DNA from: Gemmatimonadota bacterium
GTDB taxonomy: Bacteria > Gemmatimonadota > Gemmatimonadetes > Gemmatimonadales > GWC2-71-9
Direction: 5' to 3'
DNA: 64,000 nt
Assembly (NCBI GenBank): GCA_039589615.1
Contig: JBDHHA010000001.1
Span: 63,435 to 127,434, forward strand
The notes beneath the pieces were generated by a model, which did not search any database, was not told where the DNA came from, and saw only the letters and a program-made list of their open reading frames with translations. Shown here in pieces: positions 9,959 to 61,961 of this stretch. Each line of letters starts with the position of its first letter. Within the stretch, counting starts at the first letter, position 1. Position numbers and translations under genes: made by a program.

Positions 9959-10172
9959 GAGTCGTCTCGAGCGTGGGTGATGGGCTGTGGCCGGGCGGCG
10001 CCGGCTGTCGCGTGACCATAACGATTGGCGCCACCCCGCGCCAGGCAGCCGGCCGCCACCTCGGAACCGCCCGGTTTTGCTGGGCTTGCTGTGCTTGACA
10101 CCGCCTTGACGGCGCCGCTGCACCTTGTTCGCCATGGAGAAATCCGCCGGACGCCCAGGCGCCGAATTCGCT

Positions 10173-42651: not shown

Positions 42652-42791
42652 CGAGGAAATCCTTTCATCTGGACGGCAACCTACCGGCCGGTCGTCAAGG
42701 CGACGTCAAGCGCCCGGCCTCCCTCCCGGGCTTGACGCCTCCTTGACGCCTCTCCGGCAGCTTGAAGCCGGAAAGTCGAGAGGACGACACC

Positions 42792-43610: not shown

Positions 43611-45048
43611 GCCGAAACTGCAGATCATCGTGCTGTTTCAGAACCTGGGTGACGAACATGCGTACTACGCCCTTGCACCGGCGCCGCCGCTGTCAGGCGT
43701 GCTGCTCGCCGGCCTGACTCCTGACATTGTGGAGATCGAGTTGCTGCACGAGATGATCCGGCCCATCGACTACACGACCGACGCGGATTTCATCGCCTTG
43801 AGCTTCATGGATTTCTGCGCTCCGCACGCCTACGAGGTCGCCGCCCGCTTCCGGAAGTTGGGCAAGGTGGTCGTGGCGGGTGGGCGTTACCCCTCCACGT
43901 TCCCCCATGAGGTCATGCCCCACATGGATGCCGTCGTGGTGGGGGAAGCCGAGCCCGTGTGGGCGCAGGTGGTGGAGGATCTGGTAACGGGAAAGCTCAG
44001 ACGCATGTACACCGCGCCGTTCGCTCCGCCGTTGGACGGGATTCCGCCTCCGCGGTACGATCTCGTCGAATCTGCATTCGCAGCACCGGTGGTCACCGAG
44101 GCAACCCGCGGCTGCCCGTTTCAATGCACGTACTGCGCTCTCAACATCAGGACGGCACCGCACCGGTGCCGTCCCATCGAGGACGTGATTCGGGATCTCA
44201 CGGCCACTTCCAAGCTGCCGCTCCACAAGCGGAAGATGGCCATGGTCTACGACAACAACTTTGCCGGAAACATGGACTACGCGAAGGAGTTGCTGCGGGA
44301 AATCGGCAAGCTGAAGCTGTGGGGCGTCGGCTTCCAGTTCACCTTCAACTGTCTCCAAGACGACGAGTACCTGGACCTCCTGGCGGAAGCCAACGGCATC
44401 ATGGCGTTTATCGGCCTGGAGTCGCTCAACCAACCGAGCCTGCTCTCGGTCCGCAAGAGACAAAACAAGGTGCAGGAGTACCAGGAGCAGTTCAGGAAGC
44501 TCCGGGAGCGGGGCATCATGACCTTCACCGGCATGATGCTGGCGCTCGACGAGGACACGCCCGAGTACTACCGCAGCCTGCCGAACCGCTTGGAAGAGGT
44601 CGATCCCAGCGCGGTGCTCCTGTCGATCTCCATTCCCATTCCGGGGACGCCGTTCCACAAGCATGTGGAGTCGGAAGGTCGTATTCTCGACGAGAATCTG
44701 GCACACTACGAGGGCGACCATCTGGTATTTCAGCCCAAGAAGGTCACCGCAGACGACGTCTACACTGCCTTTCGCCGGATCAACCGGATCTTCTATTCGT
44801 GGAAGAACATTGCCAGGCGGTGGTGGCGGTTACTCTCGTCCTATCTGGGAAGCCGGGCCGCGCCAAGCGGCCTGTTCCACGCGCTGCTCATGACGTACAT
44901 CTTCTTCAAACTCTCCGTCTTCCAACGGCACCATGCGCAGAAGAAGGTGTATTCGCTCCCGATCGCGCCGCCACGGGATCGACCCGAGACGGCGAACCAC
45001 CCGCCCCTCGTGCAACTCGATGGCGGCCGGGAGCGGATATCTGCGTAG
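43603..45048 (+). CDS. B12-binding-domain radical SAM protein (class B)
   Basis: N-terminal Rossmann-like B12-type domain, then CPFQCTYC (CxxxCxxC). 481 aa. The ATG overlaps the SDR stop by 8 nt. Confidence 0.8.
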   Translation: MAKPKLQIIVLFQNLGDEHAYYALAPAPPLSGVLLAGLTPDIVEIELLHEMIRPIDYTTDADFIALSFMDFCAPHAYEVAARFRKLGKVVVAGGRYPSTFPHEVMPHMDAVVVGEAEPVWAQVVEDLVTGKLRRMYTAPFAPPLDGIPPPRYDLVESAFAAPVVTEATRGCPFQCTYCALNIRTAPHRCRPIEDVIRDLTATSKLPLHKRKMAMVYDNNFAGNMDYAKELLREIGKLKLWGVGFQFTFNCLQDDEYLDLLAEANGIMAFIGLESLNQPSLLSVRKRQNKVQEYQEQFRKLRERGIMTFTGMMLALDEDTPEYYRSLPNRLEEVDPSAVLLSISIPIPGTPFHKHVESEGRILDENLAHYEGDHLVFQPKKVTADDVYTAFRRINRIFYSWKNIARRWWRLLSSYLGSRAAPSGLFHALLMTYIFFKLSVFQRHHAQKKVYSLPIAPPRDRPETANHPPLVQLDGGRERISA

Positions 45049-45063
45049 GCCCACGCAGGCCTA
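45046..45063. terminator. Short hairpin spanning the stop codons of two convergent genes
   Basis: TAGGCC-CACGCA-GGCCTA is a 6-bp stem with a 6-nt loop. TAG (45046-45048) is the radical SAM stop and CTA (45061-45063) is the reverse-strand stop of the peptidase-like gene. There is no U-tract, so terminator function is speculative. Confidence 0.2.
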
Positions 45064-45438
45064 GAACACCATCTCCTCGTCGCTCAAGCCGAAGTGGTGC
45101 CCGATCTCGTGAATGACCGTCTCACGGACTTGCTGCAGAACCTCGCTGGCGCTGGCACAACATCGGAGGATAGGACCGCGGTAGATGAACACACGATCGG
45201 GGAGGCCAGTGTAGGCGACATCCCGATCCGTCAGGGGCACCCCGTGGTAGAGTCCCAGTAGCTCGCCATCTTCTGGATCCACGTCGAGGTCGGCGAGGTC
45301 CTCTGGTGAGGGTTCGTCTTCCACCACGATCGCCACGTTCTCCAGCATGGGCTGGAAGCGTTGGGGAAGATCCTCCAGCGCCTCCACCACCATGGCCTGG
45401 AATTCATCGAGGCTGAAATCCATCCGCCCGGGATTCAT
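45061..45438 (-). CDS. Small zinc-metallopeptidase-like protein (HExxH, zincin-like fold)
   Basis: 125 aa, acidic, with a C-terminal VIHEIGHHFG motif. Confidence 0.7.
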   Translation of the reverse strand: MNPGRMDFSLDEFQAMVVEALEDLPQRFQPMLENVAIVVEDEPSPEDLADLDVDPEDGELLGLYHGVPLTDRDVAYTGLPDRVFIYRGPILRCCASASEVLQQVRETVIHEIGHHFGLSDEEMVF

Positions 45439-45517
45439 CGGCAGTTCATCCCCCGTTCATGCTCACCGTCAAAGAATGAAAGGCTCTTCAAGTTCCCTTC
45501 GCAATGGGCATCGCCTC

Positions 45518-46537
45518 ATGGAGTTCACAGGAGGGCCCATCCCAAAGATATGGACGACGGGGTCGCTTTCCGGGGTCGACGCCATCGCCGAATCCGTGGC
45601 GGCCAAAGGCAAGAGTAACCTCTATCGCACGAGCTGCTACTTCGGGGATCGGGAGCGATACCGGTCGTTTTGTGCGCTGTATGCCGTTCTCCGGTTGGTG
45701 TCGGATCGGGTGAAAACCTTCCTGGCGGGCGGCGACGACTGCTCGGGTGAACTGTGTCAGGAGTTCATCGTCGTGCAGGCGTGGCGCCGGGTCATTGCGG
45801 CTTTGCTGACAGGCGACGATCCGATGCAGCAGGACATTCAGCAGATCGGCATCCCGCAGCTCGACGAACTCCTCGTGTCGTTTGGCGACGCCACGAAGCG
45901 GTTTCCCATTCCCGAGCAGCTATGGACCGCCTTCATGAACGCGATGGAGCGCGATCTCCAGCACCACCGCTTCGAAACTTTTGACGAGGTGATGGAATAC
46001 GCGGAGGGCGCGGCGGTTTGTCCGACGACGATCTACTTATATCTCGTACTGGCCGACGCACCCGATGACCACGGTGTATACCAGCTTCCACCAAACTTCG
46101 ACCTCCTGCCGTGCAGTAGGGATTTCGGTCTCTTCGGGTACCTCGCCCACAGTCTTCGTGATTTCCGACAAGACCTTGCGACCGGGAAGCGTGGTCACCT
46201 GTACATCGCAGCCGAAGACATGGCGCGTCACGGCGTCACCGAGCGAAAGCTGTTCGACGATTTGGTATCCGGGGTGGCGAGCTCCGAGCTGCGGGCCCTC
46301 GTGCGTGACCTGGTCGAGCGGGCGCGGGCTTTGGCGAGGCGGGGTCGTGTGAGCCTATCGGTGGTCGAACCGGACCTCAGCGCGGACCGGGCGTTCATGC
46401 TCAAATTGATCGTGCGGTCGTACGAGGCGTTTCTCGACAAGATCGTCTTCCATTCCTACAACGTGATGACTGACGATCACCGTTTGACCGAAGTCGAGCT
46501 GGAGAGTGTGGCGCTGGAGGTGGGCACGTTGATGTGA
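45518..46537 (+). CDS. Squalene/phytoene synthase family protein (trans-isoprenyl diphosphate synthase head-to-head fold), atypical first Asp-rich motif
   Basis: ATG 45518 (MEFTGG...). The ALYAVLRLVSDRV region aligns to the YxxxRxxDDxxD region, and LRDFRQDLATGKRGHLYI aligns to the second motif (RDxxxD...GRxY). The upstream 57 codons of the track ORF overlap the opposite-strand peptidase gene. Confidence 0.65.
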   Translation: MEFTGGPIPKIWTTGSLSGVDAIAESVAAKGKSNLYRTSCYFGDRERYRSFCALYAVLRLVSDRVKTFLAGGDDCSGELCQEFIVVQAWRRVIAALLTGDDPMQQDIQQIGIPQLDELLVSFGDATKRFPIPEQLWTAFMNAMERDLQHHRFETFDEVMEYAEGAAVCPTTIYLYLVLADAPDDHGVYQLPPNFDLLPCSRDFGLFGYLAHSLRDFRQDLATGKRGHLYIAAEDMARHGVTERKLFDDLVSGVASSELRALVRDLVERARALARRGRVSLSVVEPDLSADRAFMLKLIVRSYEAFLDKIVFHSYNVMTDDHRLTEVELESVALEVGTLM

Positions 46538-46643: not shown

Positions 46644-48086
46644 ATGGTTCACCACGCCCGTCTGTCCACACCGTCCCTCATGGTACTGCTCAGCGTCGCC
46701 GTGGTCGTTTCCGGGCAAGCTCAGGGCCGTGGCCCGACGACCGGTTTCGAGGTCGGGCAACCCTTCCCGGGGCTCGCCCTTCCTCGACTCGACGACGGCC
46801 GCACCGCCTCGCTGGCGGACTTCCGCGGCAAGAAACTCCTGCTCCACGTGTTCGCCTCCTGGTGAGCGGGCTGCCGAGTGCACGTGCCCGGGTGGCACGA
46901 CGCGACCAAAGACCTGCAGGCGTCCGGTGACCTGCAAATGGTGGGGATCATCCAGGAGCAGCATCCCGACCGGGCTCGGCTCTTCATGCAGTGGAAGGAG
47001 ATGGGTTGGCCGATTCTGGTTGACGCCTACAACCTTCTCGAGGTGCCGGTCGTCCCGATCACGCTGGCGATCGACGAGCACGGAGTGATCCGTCAGATCA
47101 ATCCTCGGCGAGGTGACGTCGATCGGCTTCAGGAGACTTTCCTCTCGCAAACCTTCGATCCGCCCCCGGGGGGCGCGGATGACCTACCGCGTGCTCCGAA
47201 CCTGGACGCCCTGCGGCCGCCGGCTGGGTCCGGCAGCGCCGGAGCGTGGATGGCGTACGGGGATGCCCTCGCCGTGTGGGGAGGCCCCGACCGCCGCGAC
47301 GACGCCATTGCCGCGTACGAGTCCGCGGTTCGCCCCAATGCGGAAAACGCACTGGGTCACTTCCGTTTGGGGGTTGCCCACCGGATGCGCTATGACTCGG
47401 ACGCGCGACGGGATGGAGACTTCACCAAGGCCGTCGAGCACTGGATGATGGCCCTCGACATCGATCCCAACCAATACATCTTCCGCCGGCGCATACAGCA
47501 GTACGGTCCCCGATTGGACAAGCCGTACCCGTTCTACGATTGGGTGGTCACGGCGCGGGCCGAGATCGAGGCACGGGGCGAGGCGCCGTCTCCCCTCGTG
47601 GTGGAGCCCCGGGGGGCGGAGTTCGCGCGGCCCGCCGAGGCATTCGTCGCCTCCGAGAAGCCCGAGGACGAGCCCGATCCCCGGGGACGGGTCCTGCGAG
47701 ATGAAGGGCAGTTCATAACCATCGAGACCACCACGGTCCCCCCGGCCGTCGAGCCAGGCGCGACCGCCCGCTTCCACATCGTGTTCCGCCCCGTGGAGGA
47801 GAACGAATCTCACTGGAACAACGAGGCTGAGGACCTCGCCTTCTGGATAGACCCTCCGGCAGGGTGGGAGGTGGAGCACCGTTATCTAACCGTCAGCATT
47901 CCCCCCGAGCCGGTGAGCCGGGAAACCCGCGTTCTCGAGGTGGAGGTCCAGGCACCCGAGCGCACCCGTGCCCGCCGCGTGAACATCCCCGCGTACGCGT
48001 TGTATTACGTGTGTGAAGACGTAAACGGGGTGTGCATGTACCGACGGCAAGACGTCGAGCTCCAGATCGCAGTCAAAAGGCAGTAG
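46644..48086 (+). CDS. Secreted thioredoxin-fold (TlpA/redoxin-like) protein with probable selenocysteine (UAGC active site), TPR-like and C-terminal beta-rich domains
   Basis: ORFs 46608-46865 and 46878-48086 share one frame, separated only by TGA 46863-46865. The context LLHVFASW-TGA-AGCRVHVPGW matches the WCxxC redoxin active site. AGGGAG lies 6 nt before ATG 46644, and a signal peptide is present. Confidence 0.65.
46879..46904 (+). promoter_or_regulatory. Candidate bacterial SECIS-like hairpin downstream of the in-frame UGA
   Basis: UGC-A-CGUGCC-CGGGU-GGCACG-AC-GCG. A 6-bp GC-rich upper stem (46883-46888 pairing 46894-46899) carries a G-rich 5-nt loop, with a 3-bp lower stem. It starts 13 nt after the UGA. 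Confidence 0.45.
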
Positions 48087-48247
48087 CTCCCGTCGGTCCT
48101 GAAACGTTCTGAAACCAATGCCCCCACGGTTACGTGATGAGCTGTGGGGGTCTTCACGTCCAGGAAGCAACGCCCCGTGGTCGCAGTCGGATCCTGACGG
48201 ACGTCACGCGCGATCGTCGGGACGCAAGTGGGCAGGAGCCGCGGGAC

Positions 48248-50389
48248 ATGGTTATAGCGCTCGATACGCAGCGTCTCAAAGCAGGTCTTGCCGACCGATA
48301 CCTCATTGGTCGCCGTATCGGCACCGGTGGGATGGCCGTGGTGTATCTCGCGCAGGATCTCCGACACGACCGCAACGTCGCGATAAAGGTGCTCCGCCCC
48401 GAGGTGTCGGGGGCCGTTGGCGCCGAGCGTTTTCTCCGCGAAATCCAGATCGTCGCACAACTCCAGCACCCCAATATTCTCACCCTCCACGATTCGGGAG
48501 AGGTGGACGGCTGGCTCTACTACGTCATGCCGTACGTGGATGGCGAGTCGTTGCGTGGTCGGCTCAACCGCGAAAAACAGCTCCCTATCGTCGAGGCCGT
48601 GCGGATCACCCAAGAGGTAGCCGACGCCCTCGACTCTGCACACCGCCACGGTGTGGTGCACCGAGACATCAAGCCGGAGAACATCTTGCTCGAGGAGGGC
48701 CACGCCGTCGTTGCCGATTTCGGCATCGCCTCTGCCGTGACGGCGGCATCCGGCGAGCACGTCACCGAGGAGGATGTTGCCCTGGGCACGGCGGCGTACA
48801 TGAGTCCGGAGCAGGGCAGCGGAAGCCAACTCGACGCCCGGAGTGACCTCTATTCGCTGGGGTGCGTGTCCTACGAGATGTTGACGGGACAGCCACCGTT
48901 CGTCGGGTCGGATCCCCGGGCGATCATCGCGCGGCACATGGTCGATCCCGCTCCGCCAATGACGACGGTGCGCCCCGACGTTCCCACGGCCGTCACCACC
49001 GCCGTCATGAAGGCGTTGAGCAAGGAAGCCGCCGACCGCTTCGCGACCCTCAGGGAGTTCAGCGACGCGCTGGAAGAGAGCGGCCTCGTGAGGCAGCCGG
49101 CCGCCGCCAAATCGATCGCGGTGCTTCCCTTTGCCAACATGAGTCCCGATCCCGAGGACGGCTTCCTCGCTGATGGGATCACCGAAGAGATCATCAACGC
49201 ATTGACGAAGATCGATGGGCTGCGGGTTGCCGCGCGTACCTCGGCCTTTGCGTTCAAGGACAAAAACGCAGACGTCCGCGCAATCGGCGGACACCTCAGC
49301 GTGCGTTCCGTACTGGAGGGCAGCGTGCGGAAGGCAGGGAATCGGATCAGGATCACGGCGCAGCTCGTCGATGTCGCCGATGGTTATCATCTCTGGTCCG
49401 AGCGGTACGATCGTGACCTCGAAGATGTCTTTGCGATTCAGGATGAGATCGCGGAGAACATCATGCGGTCGCTCGAGGTGATTCTGGGCGAGGACAAGAC
49501 GGTCGATAAGGCCCCCACCGTCGATGTCAAAGCGTACGAGTATTACCTACGAGGTCGCCAGTTCTTCCATCAGACTCGGAAGAAGCGCCTCAGGTTTGCC
49601 CGAGAGATGTTCACGAAGGCCATCGAGATCGATCCCGAGTATGCGCTTGCCCACGCGGGTGTCGCGGATTGCTGTTCGCTGCTCAACATGCACTACCCGT
49701 CCACTGAGAATGATCTCGAACAAGCAGACTCCGCGAGCCGGAAGGCGCTGGAGTTGGCGCCCGACCTCGCCGAAGCCCATGCGGCCCGGGGATTTGCGTT
49801 GTGGCAGATGCGATCCGTGGACGAGGCTATTATGGAGTTCGAGACGGCGATCCGGTTGGATCCCAAGCAATTCGAAGCCCACTACTTCTACGCCCGAGCC
49901 CGCTTCGAGCAGGGTGAGCTCGGGAAGGCCGCCGAGCTTTTCGAGCGTGCGTCCCAAGTGCAAGAGGATTACCAGGCCAGCTTCTTCGCGGCGCAGTCGT
50001 ACGTGGGGCTCGGACGCGATGGTGATGCGCAGGCGGCCTATCGGAAGGCGCTGCAGGTCGCCCAGGAGCATTTGGAGCTCAATCCGGATGATCCCCGGGC
50101 GGCTACGATGTGCGCCGTGGCCGCGTGCCGGGTGGGCCAGAAGGCCGAGGGGCTCGAGTGGGCCGAGCGCGCATTGGCCATCGATCCCGACGACGGAGGT
50201 GTGCGCTACAACGTGGCGTGTCTCTATGCGCTCGAGGGGGAACCGGAAAAGGCCATCACGTGCTTGGAGGATGCCCTCCGCCGAGGGTTCGCCAACAAGG
50301 ATTGGATTGCACAGGACCCGGACCTCGAGTCGATTCGTGACGACGCGCGCTTCCAGGCGCTCATTGCAGCGGTCCCCGATCGAACCTGA
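48248..50389 (+). CDS. Ser/Thr protein kinase with central TolB-N-like/periplasmic-type module and C-terminal TPR repeats
   Basis: GTGGMAVVY...AIKVL, HRDIKPENILL, DFGIA and SPEQ, then SIAVLPFANMS...ITAQLVD, then several TPR-like repeats. ATG 48248. Confidence 0.85.
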   Translation: MVIALDTQRLKAGLADRYLIGRRIGTGGMAVVYLAQDLRHDRNVAIKVLRPEVSGAVGAERFLREIQIVAQLQHPNILTLHDSGEVDGWLYYVMPYVDGESLRGRLNREKQLPIVEAVRITQEVADALDSAHRHGVVHRDIKPENILLEEGHAVVADFGIASAVTAASGEHVTEEDVALGTAAYMSPEQGSGSQLDARSDLYSLGCVSYEMLTGQPPFVGSDPRAIIARHMVDPAPPMTTVRPDVPTAVTTAVMKALSKEAADRFATLREFSDALEESGLVRQPAAAKSIAVLPFANMSPDPEDGFLADGITEEIINALTKIDGLRVAARTSAFAFKDKNADVRAIGGHLSVRSVLEGSVRKAGNRIRITAQLVDVADGYHLWSERYDRDLEDVFAIQDEIAENIMRSLEVILGEDKTVDKAPTVDVKAYEYYLRGRQFFHQTRKKRLRFAREMFTKAIEIDPEYALAHAGVADCCSLLNMHYPSTENDLEQADSASRKALELAPDLAEAHAARGFALWQMRSVDEAIMEFETAIRLDPKQFEAHYFYARARFEQGELGKAAELFERASQVQEDYQASFFAAQSYVGLGRDGDAQAAYRKALQVAQEHLELNPDDPRAATMCAVAACRVGQKAEGLEWAERALAIDPDDGGVRYNVACLYALEGEPEKAITCLEDALRRGFANKDWIAQDPDLESIRDDARFQALIAAVPDRT

Positions 50390-50486
50390 GAGCGCCTCAG
50401 GCCCGGGCTCGCGCACAGCCCCCATTCTCCCCATCTTAGACACCGAGCAGTTGCTGGAGAGACCCGCATCTTCGGGAGGCCCGGCC

Positions 50487-50909
50487 ATGGCCGATGGTGC
50501 ACCACGCGCCCAGCTCAAGAGCGTCGACCTGGAGCGTCTCGACGGCGGAGAGTGCCTGGTGCGGGTCGAGATGGTGCGCCACCTCAGTTCCTTGCTCCAT
50601 CAGACCTTTGTCGGCAAGGCCGAGGGAGCTTGCACACCGTCGGAGGAGATGCGGTGTGCGGCGGAGGCCACCTTAAAGGCCCTGGAGCGGGCCTATGGTG
50701 CGACCACCGGGACGTTCTCATTTCAGGGGGTCAAGACGGTCGAATCCTTCGACCGTCTCGCCGTCCTCGTGGCGGTGGGGACCAGCCACGCCGGCAAGCC
50801 TTTCCGGCTCGTGGGCTTCTGCGAGGTCGTCCAGCAGCTGCGGGAGGCCGCAGCGAAAGCAACCTGCAACGCTCTGAACCGATTCCTCAGCATGGCCTAC
50901 GGCGGCTGA
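50487..50909 (+). CDS. Hypothetical protein (140 aa)
   Basis: GGGAGG lies 7 nt upstream of ATG 50487. This is the only part of track ORF 49524-50909 that does not overlap the kinase gene. No family recognised. Confidence 0.45.
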   Translation: MADGAPRAQLKSVDLERLDGGECLVRVEMVRHLSSLLHQTFVGKAEGACTPSEEMRCAAEATLKALERAYGATTGTFSFQGVKTVESFDRLAVLVAVGTSHAGKPFRLVGFCEVVQQLREAAAKATCNALNRFLSMAYGG

Positions 50910-50912
50910 GAC

Positions 50913-53069
50913 CTACCCCTCTCCAAGGGCCTCGCTGATCCGCTCCGGTGTCATGGGCAGCTCGTACAAACGCACTCCCACGGCGTCGTGAATGGCATTT
51001 GCGATGACCGCTCCCATCGTGGCGATGGGCGGCTCGCCGCCTCCGGAGGGGGGCAACTCCGTGTTTTCTACCAAGACGGTCTCGATGGTGGGCAGCCATG
51101 AGAACTTGGGGATCTCGTACGTGTCAAAGTTCTCACTCAACACCCGCCGTCCGTCGAACCGAACCTGCTCGCTGAGCGCAAACCCCAGTCCCATGGTGAT
51201 GCAACCCTCCATCTGGAGCGTCGCGCCTTCCGGATTGATGATCTCACCCATGTCTTGCGCGCACACCACCCGGAGGACCTGGACCGTCCCCTCGGCGCGA
51301 TCAACGCTCACCTCGACCATGGTCGCCACGTACGTACCGGCGTAGTCTGCACACGCCACACCGTAGCCGCTGCCGCTGGGGGCTGGTTCCAACCGCCGCC
51401 CGAACTTCTCCGCGGCGGCCTCGAGAACGCGGCGCATCCTGTCGTTCTGGAGGTTCTGCAATCGGAATGTCATGGGATCCATTCCTGCCGCAGCGGCCAT
51501 GATGTCGATCTGGGATTCGACGGCGAAGACGTTGGTGTGGGCTCCGGGCCCGCGCCACGCGCCTACCGCGAAGGGATGCGCCTGATTCGACCCACCGCCC
51601 CGGCCGCCCCAACTGCCCCGAGCCACCACCTGGTGGTGGGGGATGGCGTAGAACAGTTCCGCCCCGCGGGACCCGGCAAAGAGGGTCTCGTAGTCCCATA
51701 AGACCACCCTTCCCGCCTCATCCACCCCGGAACGCACGTTGATGATGGAAGCCGGCTGGAAGGCGTCGTAGAAGAACTCCTCTTTTCGACTCCAGGCCAC
51801 CTGGACGGGTCGCCCCGCCTGCTTTGCCAGGCGGGCTGCTTCGACCGCGTGTTGGGGGTTCGTCTTTCCCCCGAAACCGCCGCCCACGAACGGGGTGATT
51901 ACCCGCACGTTGGCGGACGGGATGCCCAACGCCTGGCTCACGGGACCCCCGAGCCAAAACGGGGCTTGTGTGGCAGCCCAGACGGTGGCCCGGTCTCCTT
52001 CCACCTGGGCCACGGCGGTGTGGGGTTCCATGGGGGCATGCGCGAGATACGGTTCGCGATACGTGTGGTCGAACGTCTGCGTCGCGAGACGTTCTCCGTC
52101 GTCGAGATTCCCCGCCGACGCCACGGGTTGCGGAGGCGGCGCCGCCTCCACTAGATGGTCGAAGATGGTCTCGTCGTTCACCGTGGCGTTGGGTACTGAC
52201 CACCGTGCCTCGAAAAGCGCCAGGGCCCGATCTGCCACATCGGGGTACTCGTGCAAGACCGCAACGAGATCGCCGTCCCGCACCACCTGCGCGCCGTCCA
52301 CCGCCTCGGCGGCAGAGGTCTCGAGGTGCTCGAGGGCCGCGTCGTGCGTCGGCGGCCGCAGGATGCGCGCGTACAACATGCCGGGAAGCTGCACGTCGCC
52401 GGTGTACTGCGCCGTTCCGGTGACCTTTGGCACCGAATCGGTGCGGGAGGTCGCCGTTCCGCATAAGCGCCGCTGGCCGGCATCTTTAGGGGAAGCCGTC
52501 CCCTCGAGGCGCCGCTCGATGCGCCGCCCCTGCGCGAGTTCCGCGTAGGAGACACTGTTGCTCCTCGCGCCACGCTGAAAGACCACTCCGTCTTCCACCG
52601 CTAGCTGGTCCGACGATACTCCCAACCGCTCTCCGGCGAGCTGCAGCAGCACCGCTCGTGCCTCGGCTCCGGCGCCCCGCAGGGCGGGTCCAAACGTCCT
52701 TATGCTCAACGAACCCACCGTTGCCATGTCTGATGGACACACGAGCGTGTCGCCCATGACCATGTCGATGGAATCCAGCGCAACGTCCAATTCGTCGCCC
52801 AACATTTGGGCCAGGGCGGTGTAGATCCCCTGTCCCATCTCGATCTTCCCCGAGAACAACGACACCCGGCCGTCGTCGCCGATCCGCAGGAACGCGTTGA
52901 AATCATCGGGATACGTCCCAAACTGCCGGGGCTGGGCAGACGACGACTGCGCGACGTGGAACAGGACGAAGATGCCGCCGCCCAGCAGCTTGACCATCTC
53001 CCGCCGGTCGAGGGTGGTATCTTCCATACCCCACTCGCGCTCGACGGCAGTGTAGTTGATGTTGCTCAT
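50913..53069 (-). CDS. Xanthine-dehydrogenase-family molybdopterin-binding subunit (IorB/aldehyde-oxidoreductase large-subunit type)
   Basis: ATG 53069 overlaps the upstream stop (ATGA). 718 aa. A Tat-like N-terminus (DRREMVKLLGGG), GKIEMGQGIYTAL and FGGK motifs. Confidence 0.85.
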   Translation of the reverse strand: MSNINYTAVEREWGMEDTTLDRREMVKLLGGGIFVLFHVAQSSSAQPRQFGTYPDDFNAFLRIGDDGRVSLFSGKIEMGQGIYTALAQMLGDELDVALDSIDMVMGDTLVCPSDMATVGSLSIRTFGPALRGAGAEARAVLLQLAGERLGVSSDQLAVEDGVVFQRGARSNSVSYAELAQGRRIERRLEGTASPKDAGQRRLCGTATSRTDSVPKVTGTAQYTGDVQLPGMLYARILRPPTHDAALEHLETSAAEAVDGAQVVRDGDLVAVLHEYPDVADRALALFEARWSVPNATVNDETIFDHLVEAAPPPQPVASAGNLDDGERLATQTFDHTYREPYLAHAPMEPHTAVAQVEGDRATVWAATQAPFWLGGPVSQALGIPSANVRVITPFVGGGFGGKTNPQHAVEAARLAKQAGRPVQVAWSRKEEFFYDAFQPASIINVRSGVDEAGRVVLWDYETLFAGSRGAELFYAIPHHQVVARGSWGGRGGGSNQAHPFAVGAWRGPGAHTNVFAVESQIDIMAAAAGMDPMTFRLQNLQNDRMRRVLEAAAEKFGRRLEPAPSGSGYGVACADYAGTYVATMVEVSVDRAEGTVQVLRVVCAQDMGEIINPEGATLQMEGCITMGLGFALSEQVRFDGRRVLSENFDTYEIPKFSWLPTIETVLVENTELPPSGGGEPPIATMGAVIANAIHDAVGVRLYELPMTPERISEALGEG

Positions 53070-53545
53070 GGCCGCGCTCCTTCCATCATGTCGGCGGCCG
53101 CTTGGATGGCGCGTACCACGCGGTTGTGACTGCCGCAGCGACAGAGATTGCCGTCCATGCCGGCGAGGATCTCCTCCCGAGACGGAGCGGCGTTCTTCGC
53201 GAGCAGGCTGTACGCGCTCATGACCATGCCGGACGTGCAATAGCCACATTGCAGCGCGTCGTGATCGACGAATGCCTGTTGCAGCGGATGGAGATCACCG
53301 TTTCGGGCCAGGCCCTCGATGGTCACCACCTCCTTGCCTGCCACGAGTCGCATGGGATACATGCACGACCGGACGGCCTCACCATTCACCAAGACCGTGC
53401 ACGCACCGCACAGGGCTTGGCCGCACCCGTACTTCGTGCCGGTCAACGCGGCATCGGTGCGAAGCGCCCACAGCAACATGCGGGTGGGGTCGACGGTGAG
53501 GTTGGTGGGACGGCCGTTCAGCTGGAACTGAATGGGTTGCTTCAT
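53066..53545 (-). CDS. (2Fe-2S)-binding small subunit of molybdopterin oxidoreductase
   Basis: 159 aa. CGQALCGACTV and CGYCTSGM...CRCGSH are the two canonical 2Fe-2S motifs. GGAGGG lies upstream of ATG 53545. Confidence 0.85.
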   Translation of the reverse strand: MKQPIQFQLNGRPTNLTVDPTRMLLWALRTDAALTGTKYGCGQALCGACTVLVNGEAVRSCMYPMRLVAGKEVVTIEGLARNGDLHPLQQAFVDHDALQCGYCTSGMVMSAYSLLAKNAAPSREEILAGMDGNLCRCGSHNRVVRAIQAAADMMEGARP

Positions 53546-53639
53546 GGTCCCTCCGGGGAGGACAATGGCCGGTACCCACGAAGCGGCGTCGTTTCTAAGA
53601 GAAGGATGAAACGCGCCTGAAGAACGGGACACAAAAGTC

Positions 53640-55688
53640 CTATTGGCGCGGCGCTGCCCGTCGGCGGAGAGCGTCCAGGGGCGTCTCCAGAGCTTCCTCG
53701 AGTGCCGCCCGTCGGTCGATGGGGTAGGCTGCCTCGAGATCGGGCGACGGCATGACGCCGGCGGGGTAGTAGGCGATGTCCTGCCTCTTCTCCATGATGT
53801 GGCGCTTGGCGAGATCGAGGTCCCGTGCGTTCGCACCCCATGGCTCGTGCACCGTCCCGTCATCCCGTCGCTCGAGATCCCGCCACCACTTCTTGATGGG
53901 ATTGCGCTCGCCGTGGCGCACCAGGTCGTCCAATCGCACGAGCCAGCGGCGCGTGAAGGGGACGTGCACGGCGGCCCAGAGCAGGATCCGGTGCGTCAAC
54001 AGACCCTCGTTGGCAAACGGACACACCTTCATGCACCGGCCGCACGACGATCCCTTGGGGTTCGTCACGCGATAGCGGGTGCAACGCTCGACATCCGGCT
54101 TCCATATCTCGTAGCCGTTGAACATCACCTTGGACTTGTACGAGATGGCGTTGCAGGGACACTCCCGGGCGCACTTGCGACACTTGGTGCAAGTGTCCTG
54201 GAGGCCGAAGTCGATGGGACGATCCACGGCGAGAGGCATGTCTGTGGTGACCACGACGGACTTGGAACGGGGTCCAAGGAACGGATGTAGCACGAGTTCG
54301 CCGATGCGGCTCAGCTCGCCCAACCCTGCCCACAGCACGAGGGGAAGGTGTAGCACCTGGCTGTCCCGGTTGGTGTGAGCCCTGGCCCGGAGGCCAAGGC
54401 GCCGGATGTGCTCGGCAACCAATCCGGCGAGCTCCGCTCCCCGGAGGTAGGCGCGGAGGGATTGTGCGCCACTGATCCAATCGTCGCCGCTGGCTCCCTC
54501 CGATGTGTCGTGTCCCTGATCGATCAGGAGCACGATGGCGTAGCGGTGACGTGCGTCGATGGCGTTGCCGCCGCCGTCGTGGGAATACCATGCGTACGGC
54601 CTGGCTTCGCAGATGCCCACCGCGTCGCAACCCAAGAAATAAGACAAGGACTTCACCGCGCGGGCGTTTGCGACGGGGTCACCCAGATCTCCGGACGACA
54701 TCGGCGCCGGTTGGCCGTCCTGTAACGGAACCATGGCGGCAGTGAGCCGAGCCATGGCATACGCCAGGGGGTGCTTGGTCGCGAAGCGTTGCCGCTCCCG
54801 CTGGGCCTTTTCCCCCAGGTCGCCGTGGGCCGCGCGATCGAAGAAAGCCGCGCGCAGCGGAATGCGAGGCACCTCGTCCTCGAAGACCAGCGTGGTCGGC
54901 GTGTCACGACGACGGATCTTCTCCATGGGATACGATCCCAAGTGCGACTGCCGTCGCCCGAGTCGCCGGCACTCCCGTGCAGACCTCGTTCCGCCGAGGC
55001 CCAACCAGTAGACCAGGCGGCTCATCCCCCGGAGCGTCGCGCCGCCCACCACCAGCGGCCGATCCGGCGCCAGTGGGAGGGACGTGACAACGGTGGCAGT
55101 CGCGAACCGATCGCCGAGAAACGGTGCCACCGACCCACTCTCCTGTCGTTCCACCAATCCCGCAGACCACGCCAACGCGGCGAGGTCGACGTCGGACTTT
55201 CCCTGTGCGTGCACGTCGGCGGTGAACCCGAGTTGGCGAATGTAGCTCGCGACGACTGTGGCAATCCCGGCGCCGCGAAACGCAGCGCATGCGTCTGCCG
55301 CGCCCGCAATCCAAGTAGACGCGAGCGTGCCGGGTTCCGGTTCCCGGCCGTACTCGACCAGCAGAACGACGGCCCAGCGGTCGTCGTTTACCTGGCACAC
55401 TCCCACCAGCGATGCGTCGAAGAAGTAGCACGCGGCCTTGATCTCGCGCGTCGCCACGGCCGGGTCGTCCTGCAACGCCACGCGCTCGCCGCTCACCGGG
55501 ATGTTGTCACTTGCGAGAAACGTGTCGAGATAGGATTGCACGACGCCGGCGAATCCGGGCGCCGTTGATCGAGTCGGAGAGCGGCCCGCAGCCAGCGTGG
55601 CCGGGACCGGGTGGGCAATCCGCGGCAGCCGCTCCAGTGGAAACGGGCCCAGGTGCAGCGGCCGTTTGCGATTCGAGAAGAGCTTCAT
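53640..55688 (-). CDS. Reductive dehalogenase (RdhA) homologue, long cytoplasmic catabolic type
   Basis: 682 aa. C-terminal CTKCRKCARECP and C...CGRCMKVCP Fe-S motifs. Two tandem RdhA-like core segments. No Tat signal and no rdhB-like anchor nearby. Confidence 0.7.
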   Translation of the reverse strand: MKLFSNRKRPLHLGPFPLERLPRIAHPVPATLAAGRSPTRSTAPGFAGVVQSYLDTFLASDNIPVSGERVALQDDPAVATREIKAACYFFDASLVGVCQVNDDRWAVVLLVEYGREPEPGTLASTWIAGAADACAAFRGAGIATVVASYIRQLGFTADVHAQGKSDVDLAALAWSAGLVERQESGSVAPFLGDRFATATVVTSLPLAPDRPLVVGGATLRGMSRLVYWLGLGGTRSARECRRLGRRQSHLGSYPMEKIRRRDTPTTLVFEDEVPRIPLRAAFFDRAAHGDLGEKAQRERQRFATKHPLAYAMARLTAAMVPLQDGQPAPMSSGDLGDPVANARAVKSLSYFLGCDAVGICEARPYAWYSHDGGGNAIDARHRYAIVLLIDQGHDTSEGASGDDWISGAQSLRAYLRGAELAGLVAEHIRRLGLRARAHTNRDSQVLHLPLVLWAGLGELSRIGELVLHPFLGPRSKSVVVTTDMPLAVDRPIDFGLQDTCTKCRKCARECPCNAISYKSKVMFNGYEIWKPDVERCTRYRVTNPKGSSCGRCMKVCPFANEGLLTHRILLWAAVHVPFTRRWLVRLDDLVRHGERNPIKKWWRDLERRDDGTVHEPWGANARDLDLAKRHIMEKRQDIAYYPAGVMPSPDLEAAYPIDRRAALEEALETPLDALRRRAAPRQ

Positions 55689-56756: not shown

Positions 56757-59327
56757 TTATCGAAACACGCTGATTCGGTGCGTGGTGCGTCGATCCCCCG
56801 CCGGCAATGTCAAGGCAATTCTCGACACCCATCCGTCCCGCTCGACGAGCGAGGCGCCCTCGACGCGGCTGAACTGCTCACCGTGTAACCGCAGCTCGTA
56901 GGTGCGGCCCGCCACGCCCTCTACGTCCAGCGTCCACATGTCGTTCGCAAACGTGAAATCGACGATGCGGATCCCGTTGCTCGCCTGCCCGGGCTGGAGG
57001 GCAACCGACGGTGGCTCGACGTAAAGGCCGCCGTCCCAGTGGAGCTCGATGCGCGTCGGTGTCTCGGAGACACCGAAGGTGGCGCGATGACGGAACTCGC
57101 TCGACATCCTCGTGTCCTCCGGCATCTCCGTCCACCAAGTGTCTTGCACTCCCAAAGGAAAGGGAGCCGTGAACGCGAGTTGTATGGCAGGTCCGCGGGC
57201 CACGAACTCCGCGGCCAGGCGCCCCGCTTCCTGCTCGATGACGACGTCCAATGACGCGTCGCCCACCCGCAGGTTGCGTAGCCGAACCTCGTCCCACTGG
57301 GGCGGAAGTTGCGGAGTGAGTTTCGCATAGCGCGACGTAGCGTGTGGTTCCCAGCCCAGCATCCCCAACATCACCGGCGAGACGAGCATGGAGGTGGCGA
57401 AGAACTGATGGGGCACCGCCTGGTCGAGAGGCCGGTAGAACGCGCCCGACAGCAACTCGGGATGCCGGCCCCGGGCCCAGTCGAAGGTCATCTGCTTGAG
57501 GGCGTCGATGAGGGGGTACCCGGCCCACGGGCGATTGTAGTTGTACTGTCCCCAGCTCACAAAACCCGTCACGAAGGGCCACACTGCGCCCATGTTGTAC
57601 GCCATCGGGTCGTACAGCGGGCTGCCCGTGGACAGCATCCGGGCTCCCCAGTCCGAGCTGATGGCGTCGCCTGCGAGCTTGCGCAACGTGGACTTGGCTC
57701 GATCCTGTCTGAGGAGGCTGAACGCGGCGGCGGTGGCGGGCCACACGGTGAGGTTGTCGTTGGTGGTCCCGTCTCGGAGAATGCCGAAGGCGTGGTGCCC
57801 TTCGGCCTCCCGCCAGTAACGGTCATTGAGGGTCGCAACGGCGCGGCCGTAGAGAGCGATCGCGTCATCGGACAAACCCTCCTCGCCGACCACGCCGAGC
57901 AACTCCGGCATGGCCCCGAGCGCTTCAATCCAGACGGAAGCCAGGTAGATGTCCTGGTGGATCTGCGCTCCCAACGCGCCGACCTCGATGGCGCCCAACC
58001 CGCCAACCGTGTTCTCGATGATCCCGTCGCCGTCCGTTTCCGCCGTCAGACACCAGGCGAACGCCTTCTCGATGGCCGGCCACAGCTCCCGCACCAATTC
58101 GTCGTCGCCACTGGCCCGCCAGTAGCGCCACACGGCCACGATCCAGTAGGGCGTAGTGTCGGCGTGATAGTAGGCGTAGGGAAACTCGGTGAACCATGGG
58201 ATGCGGCCCGCGGCCTGGGAGATCTCGTGGGTGATCTTGCCGTCGTCCCGCTGGTAGCGTGCCAGGAACCGCAACTCCTGTGCGACTTGAGGCCAGAGGC
58301 CCGTGGCATCCATGGCGAAGGAGTTGATGGCCGCGTCGCCGCCGAAGAACCACCCGAACCCAGGCCGCGTGCTCGAGCCGGAGGTGCCCCATCCCGCCAC
58401 CAGTCCGCACCCCAGGTCGGGATTGCACACGAGCTGCTCGTCGAGGTTGATCTTGGACCATGCGAAGGCGAGATCCAACTCGTCGTCGGGCGTGTCGATG
58501 GAGGTTGTGCTCTCCAGAAGGCTGACGGCATGGGCCCGCCGCGCGTCGTAGATCTGCTCCGCTTCACCTATGAGTCGCCGGTAGACGTCCAACACCGAAT
58601 CCCGCGGGGCGATCCCCCCCGCGATGGCAATGGGCACGAATTCCCGGGCTGCCCGCTCCGCATCGACGGGGATGGTGAACGTGTTCGGCGCGTCGGGCAG
58701 CGCGTGGGCCGGGTGGGTGGACGCGGTCGCCGCCCACGGCGATCCGATTACCCCGTTCCGTTCTCGAAGACTCTCGGACAGGACGAAGGCCTTCTCCTGG
58801 TCGTTCCACGCGGTGTACTGCCCGCCGAATGCTCCCGGCCAGGCGTACTGGAAGACGGTCTTGAAGCTGACCACGATTTCGAGCGGGCGAAACGTTTCCA
58901 CGTCCAGCAGGACGAGCAGGCCCGCCTCGTCCAGCGGGGCCAGGATGTGCTGACGCACGGTGAACGTGGCGTGGGAGTAGGTGATCGTGGTGATCTCAGG
59001 GCGCACGTCCACCGTGCGGGCCACATCTGCTCCGCGTACTGGGTCGACGTAGTCGGGAATCTTGAAATCGAGCCGGAAGTCCGTGGCCAGCTTGAGTGGA
59101 TGCACCCACAACTCCGCCTCACCGGTCTCACTTCCCAGCCACGCGGCCGCCCGGCCCACCACCCCCAGGTACTGCTGGGGACGGACGTCAGCGGACAGGG
59201 TGAGGGGTGAATCGGTGATGGCAAACCTGGACACGGCTTGCCGTTGGGCGGCGGTTTCCCCGGCCGTGCCCATAAGGAGGAATAGGCAGAGGAGTGCCGG
59301 GGGTCCGGTTGGCAGTTGAATCTTCAT
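56757..59327 (-). CDS. Secreted (alpha/alpha)6-barrel glycoside hydrolase, amylo-alpha-1,6-glucosidase/GDE_C-like
   Basis: ATG 59327 with a signal peptide. GFGWFFGGDAAI and DGIIEN-type motifs of the six-hairpin glycosidase fold. 856 aa. Confidence 0.65.
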   Translation of the reverse strand: MKIQLPTGPPALLCLFLLMGTAGETAAQRQAVSRFAITDSPLTLSADVRPQQYLGVVGRAAAWLGSETGEAELWVHPLKLATDFRLDFKIPDYVDPVRGADVARTVDVRPEITTITYSHATFTVRQHILAPLDEAGLLVLLDVETFRPLEIVVSFKTVFQYAWPGAFGGQYTAWNDQEKAFVLSESLRERNGVIGSPWAATASTHPAHALPDAPNTFTIPVDAERAAREFVPIAIAGGIAPRDSVLDVYRRLIGEAEQIYDARRAHAVSLLESTTSIDTPDDELDLAFAWSKINLDEQLVCNPDLGCGLVAGWGTSGSSTRPGFGWFFGGDAAINSFAMDATGLWPQVAQELRFLARYQRDDGKITHEISQAAGRIPWFTEFPYAYYHADTTPYWIVAVWRYWRASGDDELVRELWPAIEKAFAWCLTAETDGDGIIENTVGGLGAIEVGALGAQIHQDIYLASVWIEALGAMPELLGVVGEEGLSDDAIALYGRAVATLNDRYWREAEGHHAFGILRDGTTNDNLTVWPATAAAFSLLRQDRAKSTLRKLAGDAISSDWGARMLSTGSPLYDPMAYNMGAVWPFVTGFVSWGQYNYNRPWAGYPLIDALKQMTFDWARGRHPELLSGAFYRPLDQAVPHQFFATSMLVSPVMLGMLGWEPHATSRYAKLTPQLPPQWDEVRLRNLRVGDASLDVVIEQEAGRLAAEFVARGPAIQLAFTAPFPLGVQDTWWTEMPEDTRMSSEFRHRATFGVSETPTRIELHWDGGLYVEPPSVALQPGQASNGIRIVDFTFANDMWTLDVEGVAGRTYELRLHGEQFSRVEGASLVERDGWVSRIALTLPAGDRRTTHRISVFR

Positions 59328-59450
59328 GCTGATAGACCTTGGAGGACCTGGTGCAATATCCCGTCTGATCCGAGATGCGTCCAGCGCCGGCGAACCGGGC
59401 ACGCCGCAGCTTGCGCGGCGCGGGGTCGGAGGCAGATTGGGAGACGAGCC

Positions 59451-61961
59451 ATGAAAGCGACGCTACTCCTCTCCGTCTCGGTGGTGCTGGCAGGATGTGC
59501 ACCGGCCCCGATCCTCGACAAGCAGGAGCTGCTGGACAGGCAGGACTGGTGGGACAACCAGGACTGGGAGTGGTATCGGGAGAAGATCCCCTTCTTCGAA
59601 TCCCCTGACCCGGACATCGACGCCACCTACTACTACCGGTGGGAAGTTCTCACCAAACACCTCGTGTACGGGTCTCCTGAGACGGGCTACACGTTCACGG
59701 AATTCATCGACCGCCCGTTCTGGTCGGGGACCTATGGCGCCATCAGTTGTCCCTTGGGGCACCAGTTCTACGAGGTGCGCTGGCTCAAGGACCGTCGCAT
59801 CATCGATGACTTCGCCCGCTACTGGTTCGAGACGCCGGGCGCTGAGCCACGGAGTTACAGCAACTGGTACGGTGACGCCATGTGGGCGACGTACACGGTG
59901 CTGTACGACGCGGAGTTCATCCGTACGGTGCTTCCCCACATGGAGACGCAGTACGCAGGCTGGATTGAGGAACATTGGGATCCCGAGCACCGCATGTTCC
60001 GGTGGGACGGCATGCACGATGGGATGGAGACCAACATCAATAGCCGGCAGACGGTAGACACCTTTGCCGGTGCGGAGGGGTACCGGCCCACCCTCAACAG
60101 CTACCTCTATGCCGACGCGGAGGCGATCTCCAAGGCCGCCGCACTCACCGGCGACTCGGAGACAGCGTTGACCTACGCGCACCGCGCCGCAGATCTCAAG
60201 CGCCGGGTGCAAGACGAACTGTGGGATGCCAGGAGGAATTTCTTCCTCCACCAGTTCGCCGCCGACGAGCTGGACGGAATCCGCGCCAAGACCCGCACAT
60301 ACGAGACCGGGAGGTACGCCGGCAACTCCCACGGGCGCGAGCTCATCGGGTACGTGCCGTGGCAGTTCAACCTGCCGGACGCCGGCTACGAAGCGGCGTG
60401 GCAGTACCTCATGGATCCCGAGTATTTTCACGCACCGTTCGGCCCCACCACCGTCGAGCAGAACGATCCCTTGTTCTACGTATCGCCCCGGTGCTGCGTG
60501 TGGAGTGGCAACGCGTGGCCTTACGCAACAACGCAGACCCTTGTGGCTCTCGCCAACCTCCTCAACAACTACGACCAGTCGTTCGTCGATGTGAATGATT
60601 ACGTGGCCCTGTTGCGGACCTACGCGATGAGCCACCGCATGAATGGCCTTCCGTACATCGCAGAGGCGGCCGATCCGGAAACCGGTTCGTGGGACGGTCA
60701 CAACACGTTTTACCACAGCGAGCACTACCTCCATTCGGGCTACGTCGATCTCATCATCACGGGGCTTGCAGGGTTGCGGCCCCGGGACGACGACACGGTC
60801 GAGGTCCATCCCCTGATCCCGGACGAGTGGGACTACTTCGCGTTGGACGACGTGTCGTACCATGGCCGCCGTCTTTCCATCGTGTGGGACCGGGACGGAA
60901 CGCGATATGGCAAGGGAGCGGGCCTCTCGGTGTTCGCCGACGGCCGGGTGATCGCCACCACGCCCACCGTGCGACGCGTGACCGTACCGCTCCCTCCGGG
61001 GGATGTGCGGGACACGGGTCCGCATCATGTGAACTTCGCCGTCAACAACCGGGGGTACTTCCCCCGTATTACCGCGTCCCACAGCGCGCCGGAAACGCCG
61101 CCGCTCTACGCTGTGGATGGGAACTCCTGGTATCACATGTCGCCGCCGAACCGGTGGACCGCAACAGGGTCCGGCAACGCGAGCGACTGGGTGGAGGTGG
61201 ATTTTGGAATCCCCCGCCGGGTGGAAACGGTGAAGCTCTACTTTCTGGATGACGGTGCAGGGATCGCTCCGCCGGAACGCTACGACGTGCAGATGTTCTA
61301 TGGCGGGCAGTGGGTGGGTATTCCTGCGCAACGCCGCTCACCGCGGACCCCGGCAGGGCGTCGTGCCAATGTGGTGTCCTTCGACATGATCGAGACGTCG
61401 AAGCTCCGGGCCGTCTTTACGCACCGCACGGGAGCGTTCACGGGACTGACGGAGATGGAAGCGTGGGGCCACGGCGAGCTCCCTCTGCCGCAGCCCACGG
61501 CGCCGGTGCACAATGTCGCCTTCAATGGGGGCGGTGAGGAATATCCCCGAGCCGCGGCGTCTTTCACCGCGCCCGTTGGAAGCATCGAGCAGGTGAACGA
61601 TCTGGAGTTTGGGTTCACCCGATACTCTCGCAACCGCTGGTCGGCCGCAGGCTCCCTCAATGCCGCCGATTGGGTGGAGATCGACTTCGGCGAACCCCAC
61701 ACCGTGGCAAGTCTCGAAATCTATTTGTATGGGGACGAAGAGCGTGGTGAGCGGGCGCCGCGGAGCTTCACGGTGCAATACTGGGTCGAGGGGGTGTGGA
61801 GGGACGCCTCGGTGGTGCGTCGTTATCCTCGTCGGCCGACGGCATCCGCGCGCAACACGGTGACGCTCCAGCCAGTCGAGACGAACAAGGTCAGAGTCGT
61901 ATTCGAGCACGACTTGCCGGGTTTCACCAGCGTGACCGAGTTGATGATATGGAAAGACTGA
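59451..61961 (+). CDS. Lipoprotein glycoside hydrolase (GH63/MGH1-like six-hairpin core) with two C-terminal F5/8-type-C (discoidin) domains
   Basis: Lipobox VLAGC. Core motif CCVWSGNAWPYATTQTL. Two C-terminal repeats each contain NRW(T/S)A.GS.NA.DWVE(V/I)DFG. Confidence 0.6.
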   Translation: MKATLLLSVSVVLAGCAPAPILDKQELLDRQDWWDNQDWEWYREKIPFFESPDPDIDATYYYRWEVLTKHLVYGSPETGYTFTEFIDRPFWSGTYGAISCPLGHQFYEVRWLKDRRIIDDFARYWFETPGAEPRSYSNWYGDAMWATYTVLYDAEFIRTVLPHMETQYAGWIEEHWDPEHRMFRWDGMHDGMETNINSRQTVDTFAGAEGYRPTLNSYLYADAEAISKAAALTGDSETALTYAHRAADLKRRVQDELWDARRNFFLHQFAADELDGIRAKTRTYETGRYAGNSHGRELIGYVPWQFNLPDAGYEAAWQYLMDPEYFHAPFGPTTVEQNDPLFYVSPRCCVWSGNAWPYATTQTLVALANLLNNYDQSFVDVNDYVALLRTYAMSHRMNGLPYIAEAADPETGSWDGHNTFYHSEHYLHSGYVDLIITGLAGLRPRDDDTVEVHPLIPDEWDYFALDDVSYHGRRLSIVWDRDGTRYGKGAGLSVFADGRVIATTPTVRRVTVPLPPGDVRDTGPHHVNFAVNNRGYFPRITASHSAPETPPLYAVDGNSWYHMSPPNRWTATGSGNASDWVEVDFGIPRRVETVKLYFLDDGAGIAPPERYDVQMFYGGQWVGIPAQRRSPRTPAGRRANVVSFDMIETSKLRAVFTHRTGAFTGLTEMEAWGHGELPLPQPTAPVHNVAFNGGGEEYPRAAASFTAPVGSIEQVNDLEFGFTRYSRNRWSAAGSLNAADWVEIDFGEPHTVASLEIYLYGDEERGERAPRSFTVQYWVEGVWRDASVVRRYPRRPTASARNTVTLQPVETNKVRVVFEHDLPGFTSVTELMIWKD

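Follow-up and report, generated by a model that had tools for sequence, protein, structure and literature searches.

The 64,000-nucleotide (64-kb) window analyzed here, positions 63,435 to 127,434 of the forward strand of contig JBDHHA010000001.1 (Gemmatimonadota bacterium, GCA_039589615.1), carries a gene, rdhA, whose product of 682 amino acids (aa) is an intact and ordinary member of the already described cytoplasmic, catabolic, B12-dependent reductive dehalogenases. The closest known enzyme is NpRdhA of Nitratireductor pacificus pht-3B (WP_008597722), which has been crystallized. The open reading frame (ORF) as called begins with ATG, and it and its domains are laid out as follows, all on the minus strand.

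53640–55688, minus strand: rdhA, complete coding sequence, 682 aa, NpRdhA-type catabolic reductive dehalogenase of the "truncated" subclass (ORF, phmmer, TIGR02486)
55467–55688, minus strand: N-terminal lead, aa 1–74, conserved with the NpRdhA N-terminus and without a signal peptide (phmmer alignment)
55044–55466, minus strand: first α/β domain, aa 75–215 (35% identity to aa 337–495)
54681–55043, minus strand: inter-domain region, aa 216–336, supplying the pocket residues F282, F283, F302, and A303 (NpRdhA alignment)
54204–54680, minus strand: putative cobalamin-binding core domain, aa 337–495, with G407, S410, L411, Y414, N440, and K476 (NpRdhA alignment)
54009–54203, minus strand: ferredoxin-like module for two [4Fe-4S] clusters, aa 496–560, including R540 (Fer4_7, NpRdhA alignment)
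53640–54008, minus strand: C-terminal helical region, aa 561–682, and stop codon (aligned to residue 692 of the 704 in NpRdhA)

A phmmer search of the sequences in the PDB matched the rdhA product to the NpRdhA structures (4RAS, 6ZXU, 6ZXX, 6ZY0, and 6ZY1) almost from end to end, with residues 1–676 of the query aligned to chain residues 1–692 (E = 1.8e-197), and global alignment gave 51% identity over 667 aligned positions. The N-terminal lead already aligns from NpRdhA residue 1 (MKLFSNRKRPLHLGP vs MRLYSNRDRPNHLGP). The NCBIfam reductive dehalogenase model TIGR02486 scored 199.6 bits, above its curated cutoff of 160.35, and the only Pfam match was the 4Fe-4S dicluster domain Fer4_7 (PF12838) at aa 499–559. 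An initial annotation, made from the sequence of the window without database searches, had recognized an RdhA homologue and placed it with NpRdhA rather than with the respiratory enzymes; the family score and the full-length alignment bear out both assignments.

The two iron–sulfur motifs of the family are complete, the first reading C500-x2-C503-x2-C506-x3-C510-P and the second C536...C549-x2-C552-x3-C556-P, and all nine NpRdhA cysteines from C512 to C568 are kept. Pfam and NCBIfam scans found no flavin, NAD, or 2Fe-2S domain in the protein, nor a domain resembling phthalate dioxygenase reductase. Because the protein ends collinearly with NpRdhA and lacks such domains, it belongs to the truncated subclass, a clade that needs external redox partners and whose native donors have yet to be reconstituted, those of NpRdhA included (PMC10463259).

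The N-terminal half of the protein contains a second, degenerate version of the core. A BLASTP self-comparison aligned aa 75–215 with aa 337–495 with 55 identities in 159 positions (35%, E = 1e-24), and the Smith–Waterman score of this pair was 222, against 33.6 ± 4.9 (maximum 60) in 1000 shuffles (z = 38). Taken as profiles from an alignment of 14 homologues, the two segments matched in HHalign with a probability of 99.9% (E = 2.7e-36), and the helices and strands of the two α/β domains occur in matching order in an AlphaFold2 model. The motif pairs that the initial annotation had quoted as parallel are all present in the translation, as are its Fe–S motifs, and the partners lie about 262–279 residues apart:

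N-terminal motif pair: REIKAACYFFDASLVGVCQ at aa 81, RAVKSLSYFLGCDAVGICE at aa 343
Middle motif pair: VVLLV at aa 107, IVLLI at aa 385
Middle motif pair: IRQLGF at aa 150, IRRLGL at aa 428
End-of-segment motif pair: VVTSLPLAPDRPL at aa 200, VVTTDMPLAVDRPI at aa 479

The two copies have diverged unequally. The core keeps Y414, K476, and S410, and in the first copy the catalytic Tyr is replaced by A136, the catalytic Lys by A196, and the Ser by D132. Among the 14 homologues, the first copy has a mean pairwise identity of 44% with 15 of 141 columns invariant, and the core copy 73% with 64 of 159; the N-terminal copy thus evolves faster than the core. Lacking the Tyr and Lys and being less constrained, the first copy fits a structural role only. 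We take the first α/β domain to derive from an ancient duplication of the core, with the catalytic residues since lost, and aa 337–495 would be the functional, cobalamin-binding copy of the two.

NpRdhA shows the same self-match (residues 75–222 vs 348–504, 34% identity, E = 5e-24), and a duplicated cobalamin-binding domain is a defining feature of the catabolic RdhA class (PMC10463259). The vestigial domain of NpRdhA is unable to bind cobalamin; it packs on the active core like the second monomer of the dimeric respiratory RdhAs, mimicking their monomer–monomer interface, and the enzyme is for this reason monomeric (PMC10463259). The duplicated core reported in the initial annotation is thus real, and the lack of self-alignment support that the annotation had named as one way to overturn its reading did not materialize, but as a published hallmark of the class the duplication is not a new feature.

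Residue roles in the active site were taken from PMC7565698 and PMC10463259 and mapped by alignment to NpRdhA. In that enzyme, S422, K488, and R552 bind the substrate hydroxyl, N452 lines the pocket, and Y426 is the proton donor, forming a dyad with K488 (PMC7565698); the rdhA product conserves them as S410, K476, R540, N440, and Y414, respectively. The hydrophobic pocket of NpRdhA consists of F290, F291, F310, P311, A419, and M423 (PMC7565698), of which the three phenylalanines are conserved (F282, F283, and F302) and the other three residues are changed, P311 to A303, A419 to G407, and M423 to L411. The 14-sequence homologue alignment shows no variation at S410, Y414, K476, R540, G407, or A303. 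With the catalytic residues and cysteines conserved, the machinery for ortho-halophenol dehalogenation is therefore intact, and the three hydrophobic substitutions are conservative and typical of the larger clade.

Neither export nor membrane attachment is indicated. The first 60 residues of the rdhA product contain no RR pair of the kind that marks the twin-arginine translocation (Tat) pathway, and the highest 19-residue Kyte–Doolittle hydropathy is 1.21, so that no transmembrane (TM) helix is present. On its two sides rdhA is bordered by intergenic gaps of just 164 and 94 bp, and the window has no small TM-rich ORF anywhere from 50 to 59 kb; an RdhB is therefore absent, in agreement with the initial annotation, which had found neither a Tat leader nor an RdhB-like anchor gene.

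The AlphaFold2 model was built from the same 14-sequence alignment and has a mean predicted local distance difference test (pLDDT) score of 67.8 and a predicted template modeling (pTM) score of 0.71, with both α/β domains confident. In Foldseek its best PDB matches were the NpRdhA chains (E ~ 1e-57, TM-score 0.74), followed by PceA (~1e-10), a membrane reductive dehalogenase complex, and QueG (~1e-2). Structure prediction, among the checks first suggested, thus ranks NpRdhA entries at the top and confirms the fold assignment, although it adds little to the evidence from sequence because confidence is low over the Fe–S and C-terminal regions.

On this evidence we consider it very likely that rdhA encodes a soluble cytoplasmic catabolic reductive dehalogenase of the NpRdhA type, dependent on cobalamin and two [4Fe-4S] clusters and without a fused NAD(P)H reductase module. 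Directly supported for this protein are its homology, its conserved residues, its duplicated core, and its lack of export or anchor features; the cofactors bound, the class of substrate, the electron donor, and a monomeric state would be those expected from homology with NpRdhA, and from the same homology we infer base-off cobalamin binding and reductive dehalogenation. By analogy with NpRdhA, an external low-potential donor, namely ferredoxin that a distinct reductase has reduced, would provide the electrons, which would reach the base-off cob(II)alamin of the second α/β domain (aa 337–495) by way of both [4Fe-4S] clusters. An ortho-halogenated phenolic substrate would be held through its hydroxyl by S410, K476, and R540 with its halogen ligating the cobalt, the carbon–halogen bond would be cleaved by reduction, and Y414, paired with K476, would protonate the carbon. 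The physiological role would then be the removal of a halogen, probably bromine, which would open aromatic acids or phenols to aerobic catabolism; organohalide respiration is not its function.

Relative to the characterized enzymes, the rdhA product is most like NpRdhA, with which it shares equal length, a collinear domain order throughout, the vestigial core duplicate, the Tyr–Lys dyad, the Arg and Ser, and the Fe–S cysteines, as well as the lack of a Tat signal and of a fused reductase. It differs in the three pocket residues and in its host, a member of the Gemmatimonadota rather than an alphaproteobacterium. The NpRdhA gene is, moreover, reported to be accompanied by a ferredoxin reductase and two ferredoxins (PMC10463259), whereas the present rdhA has no ferredoxin reductase or ferredoxin neighbors.

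As described in PMC10463259, BhbA of Comamonas sp. 7D-2 and JtRdhA of Jhaorihella thermophila likewise have the duplicated cobalamin-binding domain and two [4Fe-4S] clusters and lack a Tat signal, and they keep Y426, K488, and R552. They carry in addition a C-terminal domain resembling phthalate dioxygenase reductase, with flavin mononucleotide (FMN) and [2Fe-2S], through which they use NADPH unaided and are self-sufficient, whereas the rdhA product ends after the RdhA module. The short catabolic reductive dehalogenases of the Roseobacter Ros_A3X954 type, which debrominate bromophenols, are similarly cytoplasmic and without a Tat signal (PMC13101508). Their Fe–S motifs lie at residues 283–345 (PMC13101508), compared with 500–557 in the rdhA product, and from this earlier position we infer that they possess a single core domain and no duplicated N-terminal copy.

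Relatives of the protein are widespread. An identical protein, labeled "reductive dehalogenase", occurs on contigs of the JGI metagenomes 3300041080 and 3300041085, and the nearest relatives, 65–68% identical, come from metagenome-assembled genomes of Gemmatimonadota. When a single genome was scanned for each species, relatives were encoded at no fewer than 596 loci, in Gemmatimonadota, Alpha-, Beta-, and Gammaproteobacteria, Acidimicrobiia, Rokubacteria, Entotheonella, and Poriferisodalis, and when 8000 candidates from a set of 5.8 billion proteins were scored, 3532 of them reached E ≤ 1e-10. Judging by lineage names alone, many relatives stem from sponge-associated lineages (Entotheonella, Poriferisodalis, and SB06xx Acidimicrobiaceae bins; loci L024, L052, L078, L081, and others), an origin that would be in keeping with the breakdown of brominated metabolites of sponges.

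The gene is a further representative, from the Gemmatimonadota, of a widespread family of oxygen-tolerant debrominases with solved structures, enzymes thought to channel halogenated aromatics toward aerobic degradation, and the broad spread of relatives speaks for cytoplasmic dehalogenation being common among aerobic heterotrophs. Beyond annotation the finding matters little; the locus touches on the question of which native donor supplies electrons to the reductase-less clade but does not settle it.

Several points weigh against the reading as a catabolic dehalogenase of the NpRdhA type. The nearest characterized enzyme is only 51% identical, and in view of the three pocket changes the substrate may not be 3,5-dibromo-4-hydroxybenzoate. 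The AlphaFold2 model falls below a pLDDT of 50 at aa 495–561 and 592–659, that is, over the Fe–S and C-terminal regions. Genes for aromatic catabolism, a ferredoxin/ferredoxin-reductase pair, and genes for cobalamin synthesis or uptake are all lacking from the 64-kb window, so that the physiological role gains no support from local context.

The pocket changes also bear on the alternative that best survives, namely that the protein belongs to the NpRdhA family but acts on another substrate or catalyzes another reaction than ortho-halophenol dehalogenation, such as the dehalogenation of a different halogenated natural product or a reduction not involving halogen. Since G407 and A303 are invariant in the 14 closest homologues, NpRdhA may itself be atypical of the larger clade, and substrates are known to vary among such enzymes, the Roseobacter enzyme debrominating 2,6-dibromophenol and a Pararhodobacter enzyme deiodinating 2,4,6-triiodophenol (PMC13101508). 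The neighbor genes of the relatives are heterogeneous as well. Clustering of ORFs of at least 70 aa within 6 kb on either side of rdhA in 80 related loci revealed no universally conserved neighbor such as a ferredoxin, reductase, or transporter, although small ferredoxins could be missed at this length. The recurrent neighbors were as follows:

Short-chain dehydrogenase/reductase (SDR): 19 of 80 loci
Acyl-CoA ligase: 14 of 80 loci
Enoyl-CoA hydratase: 11 of 80 loci
PobA-like flavin adenine dinucleotide (FAD) hydroxylase: 6 of 80 loci
PaaA/B/C: 6 of 80 loci
CMD family: 6 of 80 loci

These genes of aromatic-acid and CoA-thioester catabolism accord with a role in breaking down halogenated aromatic acids. 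Examples with a PobA-like FAD hydroxylase or a PaaABC phenylacetyl-CoA oxygenase beside rdhA (L051:12148–13725, L046:13429–13731, L073:12419–13369, and L080:13910–14662) hint that members of the clade feed differing pathways, of the 4-hydroxybenzoate or the phenylacetate type. The set that contacts the phenolic hydroxyl and donates the proton (S410, Y414, K476, and R540) is nevertheless complete and invariant in the clade, and the three changes are to smaller or similar hydrophobic residues, which makes a departure from ortho-halophenol dehalogenation unlikely.

Downstream of rdhA lie two genes of a molybdenum (Mo) hydroxylase, which raise the question of a native electron donor:

53066–53545, minus strand: [2Fe-2S] small subunit of a xanthine-dehydrogenase-family Mo hydroxylase, 159 aa, IorA-like (Fer2 and Fer2_2)
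50913–53069, minus strand: molybdopterin-binding large subunit, 718 aa, with IorB-like domain order (MoCoBD_2, MoCoBD_1)

The [2Fe-2S] gene shares the strand of rdhA, starts 94 bp past its end, and overlaps the 718-aa gene by 4 bp. A longer ORF of 265 aa (53066–53863, minus strand), which would run some 220 bp into the 3' end of rdhA, arises only because a start codon farther upstream in the same frame was taken, the real start at 53545 lying behind a GGAGGGA ribosome-binding site. NCBIfam matches to the pair were generic and all under their cutoffs, the equivalog models far under, and no gene for an FAD or cytochrome subunit adjoins it. On the other side of rdhA, a PP2C phosphatase gene is divergently oriented.

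Such an arrangement could be read as a three-gene unit in which the [2Fe-2S] subunit passes electrons from aldehyde or heterocycle oxidation to RdhA, giving a redox-neutral couple. The shared strand, the short gap, and the overlap favor it. A promoter and terminator scan of 50.7–56.0 kb yielded nothing above shuffle expectation, and no terminator-like site was found in the 94-bp gap, so co-transcription is possible. Also in its favor, the truncated RdhA clade has no known native donor (PMC10463259), and the two-subunit hydroxylase is without an adjacent FAD subunit gene. If true, the reading would supply the missing donor of the truncated catabolic RdhAs, for example by coupling the oxidation of a brominated hydroxybenzaldehyde directly to its own reductive debromination.

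The linkage, however, is not conserved. By tblastn, IorA-like genes occur in 4 of the 80 loci, IorB-like genes in 4, and PP2C in 1, in no case adjoining rdhA, so that a conserved rdhA–iorAB unit is rejected; the four loci with IorA/IorB-like genes within 10 kb have them about 5 kb from rdhA and at 26–46% identity, and the Mo large-subunit gene is absent beside rdhA in the remaining 76. In the closest Gemmatimonadota relative (locus L004), rdhA is followed directly by an orthologue (76% aa identity) of the window gene at 46878–48086. A 5.5-kb block of the window (48087–53639), comprising a Ser/Thr kinase–tetratricopeptide repeat (TPR) gene, a 140-aa hypothetical gene, iorB, and iorA, is missing in L004 by tblastx, and rdhA and the 402-aa TPR gene, which the block sets apart in the window, are there only 83 bp from each other (L004:1780–1863). 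The block is a lineage-specific insertion or deletion.

The N-terminus of the 718-aa subunit is, in addition, Tat-like, with RR, a hydrophobic stretch, and SSA-Q (DRREMVKLLGGGIFVLFHVAQSSSAQ), which points to export of the Mo subunit and would place it in the periplasm, apart from a cytoplasmic RdhA. Because the linkage is not conserved, the block is an indel, and the N-terminus is Tat-like, we regard the hydroxylase pair as neighbors and not as part of the dehalogenase system. The three-gene unit is accordingly improbable, and equally so is the scenario that follows from it, in which a reductase-less RdhA of this Gemmatimonadota lineage was recruited into an operon with an FAD-less Mo hydroxylase as its physiological donor.

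A respiratory, energy-conserving reductive dehalogenase is a still more distant prospect. The respiratory enzymes, such as PceA of Sulfurospirillum multivorans (4UQU) and the reductive dehalogenase complex 8Q4H, share with the rdhA product the family model, a cobalamin-binding core, and two [4Fe-4S] motifs, and a distant phmmer match to PceA covers aa 426–602 (E = 4.7e-24). They differ from it in having a Tat leader and an RdhB anchor, in forming dimers, in lacking the vestigial domain that marks the catabolic enzymes, and in conserving energy; the rdhA product has no Tat motif, TM helix, or RdhB-like ORF, and its identity to PceA by Foldseek structural alignment is only about 20%, compared with 51% to NpRdhA, so that the respiratory reading is effectively refuted. 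Assignment to QueG or another non-dehalogenase class-III B12 enzyme, which the initial annotation had named as an outcome that would overturn its reading, is the least credible of all and is refuted by the profile scores, since beyond a common fold (Foldseek E ~ 1e-2, about 200 columns at 12–15% identity) the QueG model TIGR00276 reaches only 15.4 bits against a cutoff of 200, with a match limited to the ferredoxin motif.

The rest of the window holds housekeeping or unrelated genes, and no cobalamin riboswitch or other RNA element was matched at Rfam gathering thresholds anywhere in it. A gene resembling the alpha subunit of indolepyruvate:ferredoxin oxidoreductase (35617–37356, minus strand; TIGR03336 641 bits, just under the cutoff of 650.9) might provide reduced ferredoxin, but 17 kb separate it from rdhA and there is no evidence of linkage. 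Genes for a UbiA prenyltransferase, an SDR, a B12-binding radical SAM enzyme, and a squalene/phytoene synthase at 41153–46537 may form an isoprenoid-lipid modification locus, the radical SAM enzyme being the second B12-dependent enzyme in the window. At 10125–13301 on the plus strand, an MMPL/sterol-sensing-domain transporter of the resistance–nodulation–division (RND) type is followed directly by a LolA-like lipoprotein-sorting protein, and the two may be a lipid export pair. At 56757–61961, two large divergent glycoside-hydrolase-like genes, one GH116-like and the other MGH1/GH65-like with two F5/8 type C domains, are followed by an aldose epimerase.

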